64,000 nt of DNA from Syntrophales bacterium (lineage in GTDB: Bacteria; Desulfobacterota; Syntrophia; Syntrophales; UBA8958). The number at the start of each line of letters is the position of its first letter. The first letter of the stretch is position 1. The stretch is taken from the NCBI GenBank assembly GCA_026417625.1, contig JAOACW010000003.1, forward strand, positions 147,517-211,516, in the 5' to 3' direction. Positions 3,009 through 22,749 of this stretch are shown here, in pieces. A program made the translations under genes and the position numbers. The notes below the pieces were generated by a model, which was not told where the DNA came from, did no database searches, and saw only the letters and a program-made list of their open reading frames with translations.

Positions 3009-4220
3009 ATGCCTGTGTTTGTGTGGGAGGCGACAAATAGAAAGGGAGAGATAAAAAGAGGCGAACTTGAAGGTCCCGATGAAGCGGCGGTCAGGAATCT
3101 TCTCAGGCGCCAGGGGTTTCGGTCTATAGAGGTAAAGGCTAAGCCGAAAGATATTTCTGAGTATATTCCTTTTTTAAAACCGAAGGTCAAGGAAAAGGAA
3201 ATTGTTGTTTTCGCGAGGATTTTTTCTACAATGATAAACGCCGGACTTCCTCTTATACAGTGTTTGGATCTACTTGCGCAGCAGGAGAAAAACAGGACGT
3301 TTAAGCAGGTGATCCTCACAGTGAAGGCGGATATTGAAGGCGGGATGACTTTATGTGAAGCCCTGAAAAAACATCCCAAGGTTTTCGATGAGCTTTTTGT
3401 GAATCTGGTAGCAGCTGGTGAAAGTGGTGGTATATTAGATGTGATTCTCCAGCGTCTCTCTAATTATATGGAAAAGGCTCTTAAACTGAAAAGCAAGGTA
3501 AAAGGAGCAATGACATACCCCATCAGTGTGCTTGTGATCTCTTTGGGTGTTGTGGCACTACTTCTTCTTAAGGTGATTCCTGTTTTTCAAAAGATGTTTG
3601 AGGGTATGGGTGGAGAGTTACCCGCACCAACGCAGTTTCTTGTTAACGCTAGTGCATTTACCCAGAAATACTTCCTTGTGATGGTCGGAATTGTGGTGGC
3701 GTGTAGTTATGCATTTAAACGCTTCCGATCCACCGAAAAAGGTAGGTTATTGATCGATAGTATGTTACTGAAGGCCCCCGTATTTGGTCCACTTCTAGGT
3801 AAGGTAGCAGTGGCAAAGTTCTCCAGAACTATGTCAACAATGCTGTCCAGCGGGGTTCCCATTCTGGAAGGTCTTAGCATTGTGAGCAAAACAGCAGGCA
3901 ATGTGGTTGTAGAAAAGGCACTTATGGAAACAAGAAAGAGAATTTCCGAGGGGAAGAGCATTGCGGAACCATTAGCAGAAACTGGAATCTTTCCACCCAT
4001 GGTGATTCAGATGATCTCTGTAGGAGAGGCTACAGGTGCTCTGGATACAATGTTGGCAAAGATCGCTGATTTTTACGACGATGAGGTGGATGCTGCTGTA
4101 GAGGCGATGACGTCTCTACTCGAACCGTTGATGATGGTTTTTCTTGGGGGTGTCGTTGGAGGCATGATAATTGCTATGTACCTGCCCATTTTCAAGATGG
4201 CCTCTGTTGTTGGGGGTTAA
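3009..4220 (+). CDS. pilC: type IV pilus assembly protein PilC / type II secretion platform protein F
   Basis: 403 aa with two GspF-type repeats ([15 protein letters not shown] and [19 protein letters not shown]) and three TM segments. No adjacent pilB/pilT. Confidence 0.85.
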
Positions 4221-4224
4221 AAAA

Positions 4225-4301
4225 TGGTCGGGATGGCGCGATTCGAACGCGCGACCCCTGCGTCCCGAACGCAGTGCCCTACCAGACTGGGCCACATCCC
4301 G
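4225..4301 (-). tRNA. tRNA-Pro (anticodon CGG)
   Basis: Reverse complement folds as a 77-nt cloverleaf: CGGGATG TG GCCC AGTCTGGTA GGGC A CTGCG TTCGGGA CGCAG GGGTC GCGCG TTCGAAT CGCGC CATCCCG A CCA. Confidence 0.9.
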
Positions 4302-4309
4302 ATGTATTT

Positions 4310-4338
4310 AACATATAAAAAATGATTCTCGTTGTCCA
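4310..4338 (-). promoter_or_regulatory. possible sigma-70 promoter for tRNA-Pro
   Basis: Minus strand reads TGGACA-N17-TATGTT, ending about 8 nt before the tRNA 5' end. Confidence 0.3.
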
Positions 4339-4361
4339 CATTTTTTTGACGGTGTAGGGAG

Positions 4362-4778
4362 ATGATAATATACGATCTCAGTTGTGAAAAAGGTCACAAA
4401 TTTGAGGGGTGGTTTCAAAGCAGAGTGGCTTTCGAAGACCAGAAAGAAAAGAAGCTTATTTTGTGTCCTGTGTGTGGAAGTTCTGAAGTACAGGTGCTGC
4501 CTTCTGCCTTGAGGGTAATCAGCGGAGATAGAGGAAGGGATGGGAGACAAGATACAGTAGAGATTACGCCTCTGGGTTTTTTAAAGATGATCCAGGATTA
4601 TGTGGTGGAGAATTTCGAGGATGTGGGAGAAAGATTCGCTGAGGTAGCATTGAAGATACACAGAGGTGAGGAAGTGAGGAGAAATATTAGGGGTACAACA
4701 ACACCGGAGGAAGAAGAACTCCTCCGGGAGGAGGAAGTTCCCTTTTTGAAAATACCTATAATCAAGTTCCATAGCTAA
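4362..4778 (+). CDS. DUF1178 family zinc-ribbon protein
   Basis: MIIYDLSCEKGHKFEGWFQS ... CPVCGS is the DUF1178 N-terminal signature. Confidence 0.6.
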   Translation: MIIYDLSCEKGHKFEGWFQSRVAFEDQKEKKLILCPVCGSSEVQVLPSALRVISGDRGRDGRQDTVEITPLGFLKMIQDYVVENFEDVGERFAEVALKIHRGEEVRRNIRGTTTPEEEELLREEEVPFLKIPIIKFHS

Positions 4779-4802
4779 GACAGATCTGCAGGAGCTAGCC
4801 TT

Positions 4803-7112
4803 TTGCCAGTAATGTTAGGGAGTATACTGGAAACTATTGGAAATACCCCTCTTGTGGAAATCCGCAGGTTGAATCCTAATCCCCGGGTTAGGATCTTTGC
4901 GAAGCTTGAGTATTTTAACCCTGGGGGATCTATAAAGGATAGGCCAGCGTACGCGATGATCAAGGGTGCCGAGGAGAGAGGGGAATTGACAAGAGGGAAA
5001 ATAATTCTGGAAGCCACAAGTGGGAATACAGGTATAGGATTGGCCCTTGTAGCGGCAGCTAAGGGTTACCGTCTGTGTTTGGTGATGTCTGAGGCGGTGA
5101 GTGAGGAGCGAAAGAAGATACTGAAGGCTATGGGTGCGGAGCTCATATTTACTCCTGCCGCGCTGGGTACAGATGGTGCGATAGAGTACGTTTACAACAT
5201 GTTAAGAGAGAATCCCGATCGCTATTTCTGCCCTGATCAGTTCAACAATCCCGATAATGTGTTAGCCCATTACCATGGGACAGCGGAGGAGATTTGGCGT
5301 CAGACAGGTGGTAAAGTTTCTATGGTTGTTGTGGGTTTAGGAACAACGGGCACAGCCATGGGGGTTTCTAAGAAGTTAAAGGAGTATAATCCCTCTATTC
5401 GTATTGTGGGAGTGGAACCGTATTTACAGCACAAGATTCAGGGATTGAAGAATATGAAGGAGTCTTATAGGCCGGGCATTTTCGAGAAAGACCGCTTGGA
5501 TGAGAAGGTGAATGTTCTTGATGATGATGCTTTTGAGATGGCAAGAAAACTAGCACGGGAAGAGGGTCTATTTGTTGGTATGAGTTCTGGTGCTGCGATG
5601 TACGTGGCTGTAGAAAAGGCAAAAGAACTGAGTGACGGATTGATAGTGGTTATATGCCCAGATGGGGGAGAACGGTATCTCAGTACTGAGTTGTTTACAG
5701 ACAAACAGGAAACCACCATTAAGTTGTACAACAGCCTAACAAGATCCAAAGAGTATTTTAGACCACTCAAACCGGATGTAGTACTTATACATACGTGTGG
5801 GCCAACGGTTCATGAGATTCCCCATATAGGTAGTCTTAGGCGATTTGTAGTGTCTGATTTATTGAGGCGGTATCTGGAAGTTAAAGGTTACCGGGTGAGG
5901 AATTTAACAAATGTGGTGGATCTTGCTGATCGTTCCATTCAAGGAGCAGAACAGAGGGGAATGGATCTCAATTCTTATTCTAACTGGGGCACACAAATCT
6001 TTTTGGAGTCTCTCAGAAAATTACAGGTATTAACCGATGGCGAATATCCAAGATCTCTCGAAAATGTTGAGCGAATGGTAAAGATAGTTGAGAGGTTGAT
6101 AGATAGAGGTTACGCCTATGAGAAATTGAGGTCTGTTTACTTTGATGTATCTAAGCTTGATGGTTATGGATGTTTGTCTCACGTGGATTTGAAGAGAGTC
6201 GATTACGGTCGTACTGTGGATCTTGACGACTATGAGAAGGACAGTCCTGGTGATTTCACGCTTTTTAAAAGGGCGACCCTTAATGAGTTAAAGAAGGGAT
6301 ACTACTTCGCTACCCCTTGGGGGAATGTAAGACCCAGCTGGCACTTACAGTGTGCAGCTTTAGGACTTACATGTCTGGGCGAGGAATACGATATTCATGC
6401 CAGTGGTACTGATGTTCTTTTCCCTCATTGTGAGAATGTTTTGGCGATCGGCAAAGGATTGACGGGTAAACGCATGGCACGATATTGGTTATTAACCGAA
6501 CTTGTCATGGTCGGAGGAAAAAAGATGTCCCGTTCTGCAGGTAATGCCGTTACCATAGATGATCTTGAAAAGTATGGATACAAAGGCAGGGAAATCAGGT
6601 TTTTTTTGATAGGCGCTCATTACAGAAAACCCCTAAACTTCTCCTTTGGAGCTCTGGATACGGCAAAAAATACTGTGCGTAGATTAGATTCTTTTATACA
6701 GCGTTTGATCCGGCACAAAGGGGGTGATGAGGACCCAGAAGTGGAACAATACATATACGATGTGCGTCAGAGTTTTTTTGCAGCATTGGATGACGATCTT
6801 AATGTTGCCATGGCGTTTGCAGCACTTTTTGATTTTGTTAGGAAAGTAAGTAAACTTATGGCGCAGAATCGATTGGGTCAGCGCGCCCGTGATCGCGTAC
6901 TTGATGTGATGATGCTTCTTGATAGAGTTCTTGGAATCATGAATTTTAAAGAAGTTATGATAAGTGATGAGGCAAGAAGACTTATCGAAGAACGAGAGTC
7001 ATTGCGGAAGGCTGGTAATTGGAAAGAAGCGGATGAGATTCGAGAGAGATTGAGAAGTATGGGAATTGAGTTAGCGGATACCCCAGAAGGAACATTATGG
7101 TGGTTGGGTTAA
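4803..7112 (+). CDS. fusion protein: cysteine synthase (CysK/CysM-type PLP enzyme) plus cysteinyl-tRNA synthetase-like domain
   Basis: Residues 1-300 carry GGSIKDR (PLP lysine), TSGNTG, GTTGT, MSSGAA and GERYLST.LF. From about residue 305, IKLYNSLTRSKEYF, CGPTVHEIPHIGS, SWHLQCA, FPHCEN, KMSRS, DDDLNVAMAFAALF and a C-terminal W.EAD.IR..L...GI...DT..G..W resemble full-length CysRS. No stop or start codon at the junction (about 5700-5720). Confidence 0.8.
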   Translation: MPVMLGSILETIGNTPLVEIRRLNPNPRVRIFAKLEYFNPGGSIKDRPAYAMIKGAEERGELTRGKIILEATSGNTGIGLALVAAAKGYRLCLVMSEAVSEERKKILKAMGAELIFTPAALGTDGAIEYVYNMLRENPDRYFCPDQFNNPDNVLAHYHGTAEEIWRQTGGKVSMVVVGLGTTGTAMGVSKKLKEYNPSIRIVGVEPYLQHKIQGLKNMKESYRPGIFEKDRLDEKVNVLDDDAFEMARKLAREEGLFVGMSSGAAMYVAVEKAKELSDGLIVVICPDGGERYLSTELFTDKQETTIKLYNSLTRSKEYFRPLKPDVVLIHTCGPTVHEIPHIGSLRRFVVSDLLRRYLEVKGYRVRNLTNVVDLADRSIQGAEQRGMDLNSYSNWGTQIFLESLRKLQVLTDGEYPRSLENVERMVKIVERLIDRGYAYEKLRSVYFDVSKLDGYGCLSHVDLKRVDYGRTVDLDDYEKDSPGDFTLFKRATLNELKKGYYFATPWGNVRPSWHLQCAALGLTCLGEEYDIHASGTDVLFPHCENVLAIGKGLTGKRMARYWLLTELVMVGGKKMSRSAGNAVTIDDLEKYGYKGREIRFFLIGAHYRKPLNFSFGALDTAKNTVRRLDSFIQRLIRHKGGDEDPEVEQYIYDVRQSFFAALDDDLNVAMAFAALFDFVRKVSKLMAQNRLGQRARDRVLDVMMLLDRVLGIMNFKEVMISDEARRLIEERESLRKAGNWKEADEIRERLRSMGIELADTPEGTLWWLG

Positions 7113-7124
7113 AGGGGTTTCACA

Positions 7125-7946
7125 ATGATAAGAAAGGCTATTTATGCCGGTACGTGGTATCCAGGAAACGAGGAAAGGCTAAGGATAAGCATAGAGAAAT
7201 ACCTTGCGGCCGTTCCGTTGCAGAAATTGCCAGGGATAACTAAAGGCATTTTGGTACCTCATGCGGGATATACCTATTCGGGACAGGTAGCGGCGTACGG
7301 TTACGCTGTGGTCAGGTATTTCTCGTATGACGCCATTATAGTCATTGCACCGAGCCATTATGCTTTTTTTCATAATGTCTCAGTTTTTACCAATGGAGCT
7401 TACGAGACACCCTTGGGACTTCTCCCCGTTGATGAGGAATTGGCGGAGAGATTAATTGTTGAAGGAAAGTGCTGTGTTTCTCTGCCTGAGATTCATGAAA
7501 GAGAACATGCGATTGAGGTTCAGGTTCCATTTCTACAGCTTGTGTTTAAGGGTACTCCCTTTGTGCCTCTGATTATGGGTGATCAATCGGAAGAGCTGTG
7601 TAAGGAGCTTGCCGAGACAATATACAGGGCAATTTCCGTTTCAGGAAAAAAAGTACTGATCGTTGCTAGTTCTGATCTATCGCATTTTTACGGTTACGAT
7701 AGGGCGGTTAAGATGGACGGAGCACTGCTCAAGTATATTTCAGAAATGGATGATAAGGGTTTATTGGAGGCGCTCGCAAGAGGTACGGTAGAGGCATGTG
7801 GTGGTGGACCTATTGCGACACTGATTAAAGTGTGCAAATTTTGTGGTTCAAAAAAGGCAAGCATTTTAAAATATGCCAATTCTGGAGATGTAACGGGTGA
7901 TAGAGGGGAAGTAGTTGGTTATGCAGCGGCAGCTTTCTATGTGTGA
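7125..7946 (+). CDS. AmmeMemoRadiSam system protein B (Memo-like)
   Basis: YAGTWYPG, VPHAGYTYSG, APSH and SSDLSH motifs of the Memo/AmmeMemoRadiSam-B family. Lies 12 nt after the fusion gene. Confidence 0.8.
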   Translation: MIRKAIYAGTWYPGNEERLRISIEKYLAAVPLQKLPGITKGILVPHAGYTYSGQVAAYGYAVVRYFSYDAIIVIAPSHYAFFHNVSVFTNGAYETPLGLLPVDEELAERLIVEGKCCVSLPEIHEREHAIEVQVPFLQLVFKGTPFVPLIMGDQSEELCKELAETIYRAISVSGKKVLIVASSDLSHFYGYDRAVKMDGALLKYISEMDDKGLLEALARGTVEACGGGPIATLIKVCKFCGSKKASILKYANSGDVTGDRGEVVGYAAAAFYV

Positions 7947-7968
7947 CGAAGCAATTTTGAAAATTTTC

Positions 7969-7997
7969 TTGACATATTGAAAATAAAAAAATAGTAT
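7969..7997 (+). promoter_or_regulatory. sigma-70-type promoter for the tRNA cluster
   Basis: TTGACA (7969-7974), 17-nt A/T-rich spacer, TAGTAT (7992-7997), about 45 nt upstream of the first tRNA. Confidence 0.6.
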
Positions 7998-8043
7998 TTT
8001 AGTTTCATAATAGCAAAGTGAGTTCTTTGAAAGTGACATACTG

Positions 8044-8119
8044 GCTGGCGTAGCTCAATGGGTAGAGCAGCTGATTTGTAATCAGCAGGTTGCGGGTTCG
8101 AGTCCCATCGCCAGCTCCA
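8044..8119 (+). tRNA. tRNA-Thr (anticodon TGT)
   Basis: 76-nt cloverleaf GCTGGCG..GCTGA TTTGTAA TCAGC..CGCCAGC T CCA. One C-A mismatch in the T stem. Confidence 0.85.
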
Positions 8120-8133
8120 CTTTAGGTGATTCT

Positions 8134-8215
<82 letters not shown>

Positions 8216-8268
8216 TAAAGTTAATATTGAGGTAACAGGGGGGTGGGTTGGGACCTTGTGAGTTGAGA

Positions 8269-8344
8269 GCGGGAGTAGCTCAGTGGCTAGAGCATCAGCC
8301 TTCCAAGCTGAGGGTCGCGGGTTCGAATCCCGTTTCCCGCTCCA
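8269..8344 (+). tRNA. tRNA-Gly (anticodon TCC)
   Basis: 76-nt cloverleaf GCGGGAG..TCAGC CTTCCAA GCTGA..TTCCCGC T CCA. Confidence 0.9.
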
Positions 8345-8380
8345 CTGTTTGACATATAGTCAGATCTTGGTTGGTATATA

Positions 8381-8456
8381 GCCCACGTAGCTCAGTAGGT
8401 AGAGCACATCCTTGGTAAGGATGAGGTCGCCAGTTCAATCCTGGTCGTGGGCTCCA
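8381..8456 (+). tRNA. tRNA-Thr (anticodon GGT)
   Basis: 76-nt cloverleaf GCCCACG..CATCC TTGGTAA GGATG..CGTGGGC T CCA. Confidence 0.9.
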
Positions 8457-8476
8457 TGCGAGAGGGGAGTTAAAAT

Positions 8477-8626
8477 ATGCGGATTATAATAACACTTGCG
8501 TGTACACAGTGTAAACAGAGAAATTATACGACTACGAAGAACAAAAGGACGATGCAGAATCGTCTCGAACTCAAGAAATATTGTAAGTTTTGCCGTTCTC
8601 ATACACTTCATAGAGAAACGAAGTGA
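8477..8626 (+). CDS. rpmG: 50S ribosomal protein bL33, Zn-ribbon (C+) form
   Basis: Not in the ORF track (49 aa). Hand translation is [58 protein letters not shown] at 8464-8469. Confidence 0.9.
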
Positions 8627-8654
8627 TTATGTTACTAGGTGGCTTACAGCATGC

Positions 8655-8731
8655 AGGCCAGTAGCTCTAACGGATAGAGCGCCGGACTCCAAATCCGGAT
8701 GCTGGGGGTTCGAATCCCTCCTGGCCTGCCA
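8655..8731 (+). tRNA. tRNA-Trp (anticodon CCA)
   Basis: 77-nt cloverleaf AGGCCAG..CCGGA CTCCAAA TCCGG..CTGGCCT G CCA. Confidence 0.9.
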
Positions 8732-8781
8732 TAAATTTAAGCTGACTCTTCAGGATCAAGGGTAAAAGCAGAAAGAGTTTT

Positions 8782-8985
8782 ATGGATAAAGTTAAGGCAT
8801 GGCTAATAAAGGCGAAGGTTTTTTTGCAAGAGGCGAGGGCTGAGCTTAGAAAGGTTACGTGGCCTACGCCAAAACAGGCGTTTACGTCCACAGCTGTGGT
8901 CATTATATTTGTTTTTATAGTGTCTACGTTTCTGGGCTTTGTGGATTTCTGGTTGACGAAACTCGTTAAACTGATCTTGGGTTAG
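8782..8985 (+). CDS. secE: preprotein translocase subunit SecE
   Basis: 67 aa with the ELRKVTWPT motif followed by a single TM helix. Conserved position before nusG. Confidence 0.85.
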   Translation: MDKVKAWLIKAKVFLQEARAELRKVTWPTPKQAFTSTAVVIIFVFIVSTFLGFVDFWLTKLVKLILG

Positions 8986-8991
8986 GATGTC

Positions 8992-9522
8992 ATGGCACAT
9001 CGGTGGTATGTCGTACATACTTATTCGGGTTATGAGAATAAAGTAAAGATCTCGCTTCAGGAGCGCATTCAGGCGGCGGGAAAACAGGAGTATTTTTCCG
9101 ATATGTTGATTCCAGAAGAAAATGTGGTGGAACTTGTAAGTGGTGAGAAGAAAACCACTAAGCGTAAGTTCTTTCCCGGTTACATTCTCGTTAGGATGGA
9201 GCTAAATGAGGAAACGTGGCACCTTGTAAAGAATACTCCTAAGGTGACAGGTTTTGTTGGTGGTAGGGATAAACCCCTGACCATTCCCGACAAAGATGTA
9301 GAAATGTTAAAGACTCGTATAAGCGAGGGGACGCTCAAACCGAAGCCAAAGCATAAGTTTGATGTGGGTGATCATGTGCGGATAATAGATGGACCATTTA
9401 CGAATTTTGAGGGTGTGGTGGACGAAGTAAAACCTGAAAAGGGTAAAGTCCGGGTGATCGTGAGTATATTTGGGCGTTCGACCCCTGTGGAGCTTGATTT
9501 TATTCAGGTTGTGCAGAGCTAA
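8992..9522 (+). CDS. nusG: transcription termination/antitermination factor NusG
   Basis: [17 protein letters not shown] domain, FPGYILV, and C-terminal KOW ([14 protein letters not shown]). Confidence 0.95.
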
Positions 9523-20287: not shown

Positions 20288-20659
20288 ATGCCTACAATAA
20301 ATCAGTTGGTTCGTAAGGGGCGCACAAAGGTTGTTAAGAAGTCTACCACACCGGCTCTCGCAGGGTGTCCGCAGCGTCGAGGGGTGTGTGTGCGGGTTTA
20401 CACAACGACTCCGAAGAAGCCTAACTCGGCGTTACGTAAGGTAGCTAGGGTGCGTCTGACGAGTGGATATGAAGTTACGGCCTACATACCCGGTATTGGC
20501 CATAATCTACAGGAACATTCTGTTGTGCTGGTACGCGGTGGTAGGGTAAAGGATCTTCCGGGAGTGAGGTATCATATAATTAGGGGAGCACTTGATGCTG
20601 TTGGGGTTCAAGATAGGAGGCAGGGTAGGTCAAAATACGGTACCAAGAAGCCAAGGTGA
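20288..20659 (+). CDS. rpsL: 30S ribosomal protein uS12
   Basis: [12 protein letters not shown]...[16 protein letters not shown] signature. Confidence 0.97.
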
Positions 20660-20677
20660 TGTAAGGGTGTAGGAGTC

Positions 20678-21148
20678 ATGCCTAGGAAAAGAGTGGTTGT
20701 CAAAAGAGATATAGCGCCTGACCCAAAGTTTAAGAGCAAGCTTGTGGCGAAATTTATAAACTGTTTGATGAGGGATGGGAAAAAGAGTATAGCAGAGAAG
20801 ATCCTTTATGGGGCGTTTGAGCTCCTGGAGAAGAGGGCTAAGGAACCTCCGCTTCAGGTTTTCGAAAGGGCTATAGAGAATGTGAAGCCTTTGATCGAGG
20901 TAAAATCGAGGAGAGTGGGGGGTGCCACGTATCAGGTTCCCACGGAAGTACCTTCCAATAGAAGGCTTTCGTTGAGTATACGTTGGATCATTCATAGTGC
21001 CCGTGAGAGATCTGAGAAAAGCATGATTGAGAAATTGGCAGCGGAACTTTTGGATGCAGCGAATGGACGGGGAGCGGCTATTAAGAAAAGAGAAAATGTG
21101 CACAAAATGGCGGAGGCCAATAAAGCATTTGCGCATTTTAGATTTTAA
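20678..21148 (+). CDS. rpsG: 30S ribosomal protein uS7
   Basis: MPRKR....R.I.PDPKF...LVAKFIN.LM.DGKKS signature. Confidence 0.97.
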
Positions 21149-21231
21149 AATTTACGGTCGAGGAACAAAGGGTCAAGGTAAATAACTCAGTAAGAAATTT
21201 TTGTTAGAGATGAAGAAGGAGGAACTTAGAA

Positions 21232-22425
21232 ATGGCTAAGAAAAAATTTGAAAGAACGAAACCGCATGTGAATGTCGGTACAATTGGCCATGTGGACCAC
21301 GGAAAGACAACGTTAACAAGTGCGATTACAAAACATTTGTCTAAGAAGGGACTTGCCGAGTATCGGCCCTTTGATTCCATTGACAACGCTCCGGAAGAGA
21401 AAGAGCGGGGTGTGACGATTAATATTTGTCACGTGGAATACGAGACGGCCAAACGGCATTACGCTCACGTTGATTGTCCTGGCCATGCCGACTACATCAA
21501 AAACATGATTTCTGGGGCCGCCCATATGGATGGAGCTATTCTAGTTGTAGCAGCATCTGATGGACCGATGCCTCAGACAAGGGAGCATATTCTTCTTGCG
21601 CGGCAGGTGCAGGTACCTTATATTGTAGTTTTTTTGAATAAAATTGATCTTGTGGATGATCCGGAACTTCTTGATCTTGTGGAATTGGAACTCCGGGAGT
21701 TGTTGAGCAAGTATGAATTTCCGGGTGACGAGATTCCTATAATTAGAGGTTCTGCGCTGAAGGCTTTGGAATCCGATGATCCTGATTCTGAAGAGGCGAA
21801 ATGTATTTGGGAACTTTTAGATGCAATAGATAATTACATTCCTGAGCCTGTGAGAGTGTTGGACAAACCATTCCTCATGCCCATCGGTGATGTTTTTAGT
21901 ATTTCCGGAAGAGGTACGGTGGTGACTGGTAGGGTGGAAAGAGGTACCATTAGAGTAGGCGATGAAGTAGAGGTTGTAGGTTTCCGGCCTACTTTCAAGA
22001 CGGTATGCACCGGTGTGGAAATGTTCCGGAAAACTCTCGATGAGGGACGGGCTGGAGACGATATAGGAGTCCTTTTGAGGGGTACCAAAAGGGAAGAAGT
22101 AGAAAGAGGTCAGGTGGTTGCAAAGCCGGGTTCCATTACACCCCATACGAAATTTAAGGCGCAAGTCTACGTGTTGACTAAGGAGGAAGGGGGGCGTCAT
22201 ACGCCTTTCTTTACCGGGTATCGACCTCAGTTTTACTTCAGAACAACTGACGTCACAGGTGTCGTTCGATTGCCGGAAGGTGTGGAGATGGTAATGCCTG
22301 GTGATAATGTGGAATTAGAGATAGAGCTAATAACACCCATTGCAATGGAAGAGCAGCTCAGGTTTGCAATTAGAGAGGGTGGTAGAACAGTTGGTGCAGG
22401 TGTGGTTAGTAAGATTCTTGATTGA
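21232..22425 (+). CDS. tuf: elongation factor Tu
   Basis: [23 protein letters not shown]-motifs. 397 aa. Confidence 0.98.
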
Positions 22426-22431
22426 GAGAGT

Positions 22432-22749
22432 ATGTCTCAGATGAAGGATCAGAGGATAAGAATAAGACTAAAGGCGTACGATCATAAATTGTTGGATCGT
22501 TCGGTGCAGGAGATTGTGGAGACAGCGAGGCAAACGGGTGCCCGTGTGGCAGGACCTGTGCCCCTGCCAACGGAGATCAATAGATTCTGTGTGAATCGTT
22601 CGCCACATGTGGACAAAAAGTCGCGGGAGCAGTTTGAGATACGGACTCACAAGAGGCTTATCGATATTATCGAACCAACACAGGCCACAATAGACGCCCT
22701 GATGAAGCTGGATTTGGCTGCGGGCGTGGATGTAGAGATTAAGTTATAG
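22432..22749 (+). CDS. rpsJ: 30S ribosomal protein uS10
   Basis: [13 protein letters not shown]...IVETA..TGA.V.GP.PLPT signature. Starts 6 nt after the tuf stop. Confidence 0.97.

Follow-up and report, generated by a model that had tools for sequence, protein, structure and literature searches.

Fusion of a cysteine synthase with a cysteinyl-tRNA synthetase-like module in Syntrophales, and its relatives in other Desulfobacterota

Described systems and the layout of the fusion

Canonical cysteinyl-tRNA synthetase (CysRS; E. coli CysS, structures 1LI5, 1LI7 and 1U0B, NCBIfam model TIGR00435) consists of a Rossmann/connective peptide (CP) domain, a DALR domain and an anticodon-binding domain, in this order. 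A CysRS-derived, zinc-dependent, cysteine-adenylating fold is also found in MshC (3C8Z, 8HFM), the cysteine:GlcN-Ins (glucosaminyl-inositol) ligase of mycothiol synthesis. In the Bacillus-type gene order, a cysE-cysS operon is placed upstream of rlmB…secE-nusG-rplK. HisZ, a HisRS-like protein, regulates HisG (ATP phosphoribosyltransferase, ATP-PRT), and the HisRS-like domain of GCN2 senses uncharged tRNA. SepRS and SepCysS link cysteine synthesis with tRNA-Cys, SepCysS carrying out a beta-replacement based on pyridoxal phosphate (PLP) on the tRNA-bound substrate (PMC5424206). Here we analyse a single gene that joins a cysteine synthase to a CysRS-like enzyme. It lies in a 64,000-nucleotide stretch (hereafter the window) from a metagenome-assembled genome (MAG) of a Syntrophales bacterium (assembly GCA_026417625.1, contig JAOACW010000003.1, positions 147,517 to 211,516 of the forward strand), and was pointed out in a first-pass annotation of this stretch.

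The window protein has the domain order of canonical CysRS, preceded by an additional N-terminal cysteine synthase of 300 aa. It keeps three of the four zinc ligands, W205, H206, H37, G39, K266, M267, S268, S270 and the anticodon-domain residues (E. coli numbering is used throughout), and its amino-acid pocket is rebuilt. As in the Bacillus-type arrangement, a cysteine-biosynthesis gene is coupled to cysS near rlmB and the nusG-rpl-rpoB cluster, but the partner is a CysM-type sulfhydrylase instead of serine acetyltransferase, the coupling is covalent, and no T-box or other Rfam element was detected upstream of the fusion (Rfam scan of 4000-9000, which returned tRNAs only). There is no homology to the SepRS/SepCysS system: SepCysS has a different PLP fold and SepRS is a class II enzyme. 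What is new is the covalent joining of two known enzymes and the rebuilt pocket of the synthetase. Full-text searches retrieved no description of the fusion in the literature, profile scans of the protein found no fusion-specific model in Pfam or NCBIfam, and the family is apparently undescribed; in databases its members are named "cysteine--tRNA ligase" or "cysteine synthase".

The reading that we favour, at roughly even chances, is that the fusion acts both as cysteine synthase and as Cys-tRNA ligase, the latter with a zinc site of three ligands (Cys2His) like that of MshC. The N-terminal PLP enzyme is predicted to make L-cysteine from O-acetyl- or O-phospho-serine and sulfide. The CysRS half would bind ATP via H-I-G-x, GxD and K-M-S-R-S, hold the cysteine thiolate on zinc by Cys, Cys and His (C28, C209, H234) beneath W205, bind the tRNA-Cys anticodon with its intact C-terminal domain, and form Cys-AMP, then Cys-tRNA-Cys, from cysteine made next door. 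Its amino-acid pocket would have been rebuilt and then frozen across Syntrophales (T68V/I, H235C, E238V/I, Q241I and H256N, the last being L in the window), the loss of E238 leaving a zinc site with three protein ligands as in MshC. Both catalytic activities, retained aminoacylation and the role of the fusion as the only CysRS of the cell are thereby predicted, while architecture, conservation, distribution and residue states were observed directly.

The gene and its parts are as follows.

4791..4795, + strand: AGGAG, putative Shine-Dalgarno-like site 7 nt before TTG 4803 (read from sequence)
4803..7112, + strand: whole fusion ORF (open reading frame), TTG start, 769 aa
4827..5663, + strand: PALP (fold-type II PLP) domain, cysteine synthase of CysM/CysK type (PF00291, 247 bits)
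5667-5759, + strand: junction, GERYLSTELFTDKQETT followed by IKLYNSLTRSKEYF (read from sequence)
5697..5717, + strand: linker TDKQETT, about 7 residues, between the synthase end (…GERYLSTELF) and the first residues of the CysRS fold (IKLYNSLTR…)
5757..6668, + strand: CysRS catalytic (Rossmann plus CP) domain (PF01406, 257 bits; alignments to 1LI5)
6774..6938, + strand: DALR_2 helical domain (…AALDDDLN…; PF09190, 28.7 bits against a cutoff of 22)
6963..7070, + strand: CysS_C anticodon-binding domain (PF23493, 27.1 bits against a cutoff of 23; equivalents of R423, D436, R439, G446 and D451 present)

The first-pass annotation had described one ORF fusing the two enzymes, with neither stop nor start codon at the junction, and both statements stand. 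The frame is open across 5600-5800 with neither stop nor frameshift, and Pfam recognizes PALP (residues 6-284, 247 bits), tRNA-synt_1e (316-619, 257 bits), DALR_2 and CysS_C, which include all three domain models it had proposed as a check; every motif it had listed was recovered in its place. Pfam residue positions refer to the 766-aa numbering from ATG 4812, the start three codons later that is used in the NCBI model of the identical protein. The TTG start gives 769 aa, which is the modal length of the fusion family. The protein is 100% identical to that of an NCBI Syntrophales MAG.

In an AlphaFold2 (AF2) model of the fusion, both halves are confidently folded (mean predicted local distance difference test score, pLDDT, 83.6) and the linker is disordered, with pLDDT <50 at residues 288-299; the predicted template modelling score (pTM) is 0.61. 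Comparison of this model with known structures returned no solved structure covering both halves. The linker is also the part of lowest conservation in the fusion family. Its modelled disorder and the pTM argue against a rigid channel, and the coupling is therefore better called a tether than a demonstrated channel. Of the proposals of the first-pass annotation, the one that new cysteine would be channelled onto tRNA-Cys remains the best supported in so far as it couples synthesis to charging: the ATP, zinc and anticodon determinants are strictly conserved, and the flexible linker would act as a tether.

The synthase half carries four motifs of the PLP site.

4923-4943, + strand: GGSIKDR, with the PLP (Schiff-base) lysine (read from sequence)
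5016-5033, + strand: TSGNTG, substrate Asn-loop (read from sequence)
5340-5354, + strand: GTTGT, phosphate loop (read from sequence)
5580-5597, + strand: MSSGAA, Ser contacting the pyridine N (read from sequence)

All four are kept in 77-78 of 78 related fusions. The half passes the NCBIfam subfamily model cysKM (TIGR01136, 367.5 against a cutoff of 344.15), in agreement with its initial description as a complete CysK/CysM-type PLP enzyme, and stays below both equivalog cutoffs (cysM 366.6 against 394.2; cysK 323.3 against 350.95). Its top PDB matches are M. tuberculosis CysK1 (2Q3B; 269.7 bits, E 2.8e-79, over the entire domain) and E. coli/Salmonella CysM. All PLP-site motifs are shared with E. 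coli CysM (2BHS) and with CysK1, and the short loop before …YRPGIF is CysM-like; in contrast to these enzymes, the C-terminus runs straight into CysRS.

Residues of the CysRS half

The CysRS half scores 360.9 with TIGR00435, i.e. 21 bits above the cutoff of 340, and superposition of its model on 1U0B_B, E. coli CysRS bound to tRNACys, spans 486 columns with a target-normalised TM (template modelling) score of 0.83. Together with the presence of tRNA-synt_1e, DALR_2 and CysS_C, this agrees with the earlier view of a full-length CysRS-like sequence. The sites discussed below are the following.

5793-5807, + strand: TCGPT, C28-equivalent (alignment to 1LI5)
5823-5834, + strand: HIGS (read from sequence)
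5910-5921, + strand: NVVD, T68V (residue table)
5931-5942, + strand: RSIQ, the KIIK site (residue table)
6339-6353, + strand: WHLQC, W205 and C209 (alignment to 1LI5)
6390-6407, + strand: DIHASG (read from sequence)
6420-6440, + strand: FPHCENV, H234 kept, H235C, E238V (alignment to 1LI5)
6522-6536, + strand: KMSRS (read from sequence)

HMMER alignment to 1LI5 shows that C28, C209 and H234 are kept, together with H235C, E238V and K269R. The Glu to Val exchange at a zinc ligand and the new Cys beside the His, both seen by eye in the first-pass annotation, are therefore real. From structure work on the E. coli enzyme we take C28, C209, H234 and E238 to be the zinc ligands; Newberry et al. 2002 reportedly dealt with their roles in E. 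coli CysRS. In the window three members of this four-ligand site and W205 are present, and the fourth ligand, E238, is replaced by V.

To calibrate the residues, 121 Syntrophales-type fusions were compared with 92 cluster representatives of canonical CysRS. Some of the deviations reported earlier lose their weight. The last residue of HIGS is ordinary: N is the canonical norm at this position (73/92, with H in 17/92), and the fusion family has S in 81 and N in 37 of 121 sequences. KMSRS does depart from canonical CysRS (K269 is K in 90/92), yet R is the norm of the fusion clade (121/121). In DIHASG, the first G of the GGG is variable in canonical CysRS and in the fusion family alike, and it is G226S that marks the fusion clade. 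G226S, K269R, W184x, W194x and Q241x (canonical Q 88/92, I in the window) are all near-invariant in canonical enzymes and altered clade-wide, and occur also in canonical-looking fusion members; they are markers of the fusion clade.

A second group of changes is peculiar to Syntrophales. T68 is T in 92/92 canonical sequences and I or V in 121/121 fusions, H235 is H in 92/92 and C in the fusion family (121/121), and E238 is E in 91/92 and V, I or L in 121/121. To these may be added H256 (canonical H 91/92; mostly N in the fusions, L in the window), Y26 (canonical Y 91/92; H in 115/121, H or R being Syntrophales-specific) and K73 (canonical K 82/92; R in 116/121), the last largely Syntrophaceae-specific, as Smithella retain K. 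In total, the window differs at positions 88-100% invariant in canonical CysRS by T68V, H235C, E238V, Q241I, H256L, K269R, G226S, W184F, W194F, Y26H and K73R; T68V, Q241I, H256L, W184F, W194F, Y26H and K73R/K76Q had escaped the first-pass annotation. Whether such variants are merely ordinary in the lineage, as that annotation had considered, thus has a divided answer: HIGx is ordinary and KMSRS a clade norm, and the changes of T68, H235 and E238 are not ordinary. T68 presumably touches the alpha-amino group of the substrate in E. coli CysRS.

On the other hand, C28, G29, H37, G39, W205, H206, C209, D222, H224, G227, D229, F232, P233, H234, K266, M267, S268, S270, N273, R423, D436 and R439 are kept in 121/121 fusions, and D451 in 120/121; the anticodon-domain residues as a set (equivalents of R423, D436, R439, G446 and D451) are kept in 119-121/121. 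The window retains 51 of the 65 positions that are >=93% invariant in canonical CysRS. Mean pairwise identity among Syntrophales fusions is 73.9% in the catalytic domain and 78.5% in PALP, and 42% of catalytic columns are >=95% conserved; judged by these values, the CysRS half is under purifying selection. Contact of the conserved C-terminal residues with tRNA is an assumption of ours, made from the Pfam domain assignment and the 1U0B complex.

For two of the altered positions there are precedents compatible with a bifunctional enzyme. MshC has Ser in place of E238 (FPHHEYS in the alignment), where the window has Val, and is an active enzyme that adenylates cysteine in a zinc-dependent manner. 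The E. coli enzyme (CARS) with K269A or K266A retains translation activity in PUREfrex (PMC5660078).

The same pocket admits another reading, namely that the CysRS half is a neofunctionalised adenylating enzyme, which activates cysteine or a related thiol for an acceptor other than the ribosomal tRNA-Cys pool. It might be MshC-like, or resemble aminoacyl-tRNA synthetase (aaRS) paralogues of non-ribosomal peptide synthesis, using cysteine from the fused synthase; the thiol may lack the normal alpha-amino contact. We regard this as improbable. The replacement of the polar residues T68, E238 and Q241 by hydrophobic ones and the new Cys at 235 would suit it, the more so as they were fixed after the long stem branch which the Syntrophales fusion clade follows in a neighbour-joining (NJ) tree (rough, with Kimura distances, midpoint rooting and long branches, and used for grouping only). 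ATP and zinc-thiolate determinants are retained, Glu is missing from the E238 site as in MshC, and further class-I aaRS paralogues, some near cysteine synthase genes, were predicted in peptide-like syntheses by Aravind and colleagues (PMC2922099). However, the full anticodon-binding apparatus is present and conserved in the fusions, whereas in alignments MshC chains (413-414 aa) reach only from residue 8 to residue 375 of the CysRS-half query, which has 470 residues. MshC keeps KMSKS and H235, where the window has KMSRS and C235, and the MshC model TIGR03447 gives the window protein 174.9 against a cutoff of 485. Biosynthetic neighbours are absent from the fusion locus, which is one of translation and transcription housekeeping. 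An MshC-like ligase, the second proposal of the first-pass annotation, is thus not borne out; DALR_2 and CysS_C are kept, and the missing Glu at E238 is one trait shared with MshC.

Its third proposal, a tie to the PLP-dependent cysteine persulfide synthase (CPERS) activity of CARS enzymes, appears very unlikely. PLP binding and formation of CysSSH have been reported for the CARS of E. coli and of mammals, the activity being mapped to K73 and K76 (KIIK) and to K266 and K269 (KMSK) (PMC5660078, Akaike et al. 2017), and in the fusion a PLP enzyme is physically joined to CysRS. Yet these four lysines are R, Q, K and R in the window, so that three of them are gone, and K73 and K269 are gone almost throughout the family. 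Further, the PALP half is tied to persulfide chemistry by general class only.

Distribution of the fusion and erosion of its synthetase half

The window protein has 65-73% identity to fusions of about 769 aa that form more than 120 clusters (at 90% identity), among them those of S. gentianae and of the cultured Syntrophus aciditrophicus SB, whose genome is complete (CP000252). In a scan with one genome per GTDB species, at least 580 of at least 600 matched stretches encode a fusion relative. Lineages were surveyed in the best 80 of these at least 600 stretches, with labels taken from MAG records. They comprise Syntrophaceae, Smithellaceae (two closed chromosomes), the SEEP-SRB2/Thermodesulfobacteria group, Desulfobacterales (Desulfatibacillum, Desulfatirhabdium, Desulfobacteraceae, Olavius Delta 4 symbiont), Desulfobacca, Desulfarculaceae and Desulfocapsaceae. 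The position of the junction is homologous across all orders, with a similar short linker (78 related fusions compared), which points to one ancient fusion. The window gene would be the Syntrophales state of this single fusion, spread through Desulfobacterota.

This distribution also bears on the trivial explanation that assembly or gene calling joined adjacent cysM and cysS genes. The window does come from a MAG, truly split gene pairs are known in other lineages, and one homologue (L003/P0136) is divided into two ORFs on an ENA contig. Nevertheless, the frame in the window is continuous, and a junction at the same place is found in the complete genome of an isolate, in closed long-read chromosomes and in hundreds of independent assemblies at 51-73% identity. 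An artefact is thereby left with negligible probability: S. aciditrophicus SB, the closed Smithellaceae chromosomes and the matched stretches exclude the assembly-induced fusion against which the first-pass annotation had advised a check. The divided homologue was rejected as a true split; since it clusters at 90% identity with a fused protein of 782 aa, its division is itself the likelier artefact.

Two relatives are truly unfused, with a PALP gene 2-4 nt upstream of a CysRS-like gene. Directly after one of these pairs (L006:4209-7293) lies a gene for a ThiF/MoeB-type E1-like protein, not seen at the other loci; the combination recalls the CysO-CysM thiocarboxylate route.

A separate cysteine synthase-CysRS fusion of 768 aa was found in a Nanoarchaeota archaeon MAG (P0124), nested among canonical CysRS in the NJ tree. 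Its motifs are fully canonical (HIGN, FPHHQNE, KMSKS) and it scores 517 bits with TIGR00435. The architecture is thus viable with a canonical-looking synthetase.

Further, we compared the two halves between lineages. PALP motifs are intact in essentially every fusion, whatever the lineage, while the CysRS half erodes lineage by lineage. In the SEEP-SRB2/Thermodesulfobacteria group it resembles a working CysRS with KMSRS. Desulfobacterales fusions keep the cysteine/zinc site (C28, T68, C209, H234, H235, E238), but KMSKS is replaced by unrelated residues (K-V-D-E…), D229 (GxD) is lost and the first His of HIGH is often lost. In the fusion of 775-777 aa from Desulfovibrio ferrophilus IS5 (complete genome AP017378.1, L007:10001-12334) and in similar proteins, the zinc cysteines (C28, C209), HIGH and KMSKS are all gone, and the D. 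ferrophilus protein is annotated "cysteine synthase". Equivalents of R423, D436, R439 and D451 of the anticodon-binding domain survive in all degenerate relatives. The window protein is one state of a Desulfobacterota-wide family whose CysRS half, judging from these motifs, became a pseudo-synthetase in other orders.

The eroded modules are not drifting freely. Within Desulfobacterales, the catalytic domains share 65.7% identity and the PALP domains 75.0% (ratio 0.88), compared with 72.2% and 78.2% in Syntrophaceae and a ratio of 0.90-0.92 in Syntrophales. By this measure the presumably dead Desulfobacterales modules are still under purifying selection, and their conservation argues for some role independent of aminoacylation. 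They may be compared with HisZ and GCN2: Desulfobacterales and D. ferrophilus modules are likewise aaRS-derived, motif-less and conserved, and are attached to the cognate amino-acid biosynthesis enzyme. The window protein, in contrast, keeps ATP and zinc motifs, and there is no homology to HisRS.

In TIGR00435 scores, the Nanoarchaeota fusion (517) is followed by the SEEP-SRB2 group (436-451), Syntrophales (351-375), KMSKS-less Desulfobacterales (343-371) and P0122 (300), with the D. ferrophilus protein under the report threshold. Two KMSKS-less fusions, from a Desulfobacteraceae MAG (L063:4001-6256, 370.7) and a Desulfatibacillum MAG (L082:4001-6262, 342.7), pass the cutoff of 340, so that passing it says nothing about activity, and the score was discarded as a proxy for function. 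For fusions of these two types, systematic annotation as cysteine--tRNA ligase is probable.

These observations are the ground for the main rival reading, in which the CysRS half is a non-housekeeping partner that binds tRNA-Cys and/or cysteine and serves the fused synthase, with a separate canonical cysS doing the charging. Such a module may adjust the synthesis of cysteine to how far tRNA-Cys is charged, or to the free amino acid. We hold this possible, though doubtful. Erosion of the CysRS half beside an intact PALP half speaks for it, as do the loss of KMSKS, D229 and often HIGH from Desulfobacterales modules that keep the cysteine/zinc site, the loss of even the zinc cysteines in D. ferrophilus, the survival of the anticodon-domain equivalents in all eroded modules, and their continued purifying selection. 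The link to PALP is kept, fused or adjacent, even where the genes are split, and Syntrophales modules, in which T68 and E238 are lost, are as distant from the cysS profile as the dead ones. Yet a pure sensor would not need H37, G39, H224, G227, D229, K266-M-S and S270, which are invariant in Syntrophales; a second cysS was found neither in the window nor in 89 loci, a weak test covering a sliver of each genome; and the tRNA-contact role of the C-terminal residues depends on the Pfam assignment and the structure mentioned above. A variant, in which the CysRS half of the Desulfobacterota-wide fusion is at root a tRNA-Cys- and/or cysteine-binding device whose Syntrophales version, its ATP and zinc sites intact and its pocket made hydrophobic, was neofunctionalised for another substrate or acceptor, with a separate canonical cysS charging, we entertain with similar reserve. 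The device would control the fused synthase or act with it on tRNA, and would be for cysteine what HisZ and GCN2 are in their systems, in a bacterial form.

For the bifunctional synthase/ligase speaks the contrast between lineages: HIGH, GxD and KMSKS are kept in Syntrophales and the SEEP-SRB2 group and decayed in Desulfobacterales and D. ferrophilus, which is most simply explained by a continuing need for catalysis in the former. Further support comes from the completeness of both halves, from the catalytic-core residues kept in all 121 fusions and from the housekeeping synteny shared across the order. Several points weigh against this reading. T68, H235 and E238, practically invariant in canonical CysRS, are altered without exception in the Syntrophales-type family. 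In the Smithella clade, 4 of about 24 sequences have G or A at residue 235, which makes C235 dispensable. The overall divergence of the window from the cysS profile equals that of KMSKS-less Desulfobacterales modules, and sequence conservation alone proves little on catalysis, as motif-less modules are conserved too. Finally, tblastn of canonical CysRS against the 89 loci returned fusions only, a negative as weak here as above.

Within the window itself, neither tblastn of both halves nor Pfam/NCBIfam scans of the 27 other ORFs detected a second cysS or cysK. A homologue search from the canonical representative that scores highest against the fusion (P0147) retrieved Acidobacteriota, Omnitrophica and Coatesbacteria and no Syntrophales, and is uninformative. 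Parcubacteria and Chloroflexi were the only bacteria in which a systematic search reported SepRS/SepCysS (PMC5424206), so that some CysRS is required in Syntrophales.

Should the Syntrophales enzyme prove to charge tRNA-Cys, neither the Glu zinc ligand nor the invariant Thr68 and His235 would be indispensable to a working CysRS. The family would then be a natural experiment on zinc-thiolate selection of cysteine, and a rare instance in which an enzyme of amino-acid biosynthesis and the cognate synthetase are covalently linked. Otherwise, the fusion, together with the dead modules of Desulfobacterales and D. ferrophilus, points to an unrecognised, synthetase-like, tRNA-Cys-binding control of cysteine synthesis. 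The family is of interest because CysRS residues held to be invariant have been lost, and their loss fixed, throughout an order, and because its pseudo-synthetase relatives form a graded series. Its bearers, sulfate reducers and syntrophs, dominate anoxic, sulfidic habitats, and both S. aciditrophicus SB and D. ferrophilus IS5 are cultured, with complete genomes. Since fusions lacking KMSKS pass the NCBIfam cysS model, the name "Cysteine--tRNA ligase" is unreliable as an annotation in these Desulfobacterota lineages, and marker sets built on this model may be so likewise.

Genomic context

In Syntrophales the fusion is found in the order rlmB-pilC-DUF1178-fusion-Memo-tRNAs-secE-nusG-rplKAJL-rpoBC. 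The S. aciditrophicus locus is syntenic (yicC-gmk-rpoZ-…-rlmB-pilC-DUF1178-fusion-Memo-…-secE-nusG-rplKAJL-rpoB). The order rlmB-pilC-DUF1178-fusion-Memo-nusG was observed in about 44 of 46 Syntrophaceae and Smithellaceae loci and nowhere else among the loci compared. The direct neighbours in the window are the following.

4362..4778, + strand: DUF1178 zinc-ribbon gene, directly upstream of the fusion (PF06676)
7125..7946, + strand: gene for Memo / AmmeMemoRadiSam system protein B, directly downstream of the fusion (TIGR04336, 280 bits), a neighbour in most Syntrophales

The DUF1178 gene is probably co-transcribed with the fusion. It is situated 24-33 nt upstream in about 44 of the 46 Syntrophaceae/Smithellaceae loci (L010-L055) and not in other orders, and may be a functional partner or merely linked. 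In S. aciditrophicus, Memo is followed by an AMMECR1 gene (L001 13338-13916). In the window it is followed by a tRNA cluster (Thr-Tyr-Gly-Thr-Trp, 8044-8731), with no AMMECR1 in 7946-8044. The fusion gene of D. ferrophilus stands alone, with no adjacent gene in the same orientation; its context and those of P0121 and P0271 were uninformative on functional neighbours.

Two more distant parts of the window may be mentioned. At 20288-22749 lies a str operon, rpsL-rpsG-tuf-rpsJ, in which the elongation factor G gene (fusA), normally located between rpsG and tuf, is absent from that position. Downstream of the ribosomal protein cluster, at 41000-63000, there is a flagellar block (FliF, FliG, FliI-type ATPase, MotA), which also contains chemotaxis genes (MCP, i.e. 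methyl-accepting chemotaxis protein, and CheB) and two sigma-54 response regulators.

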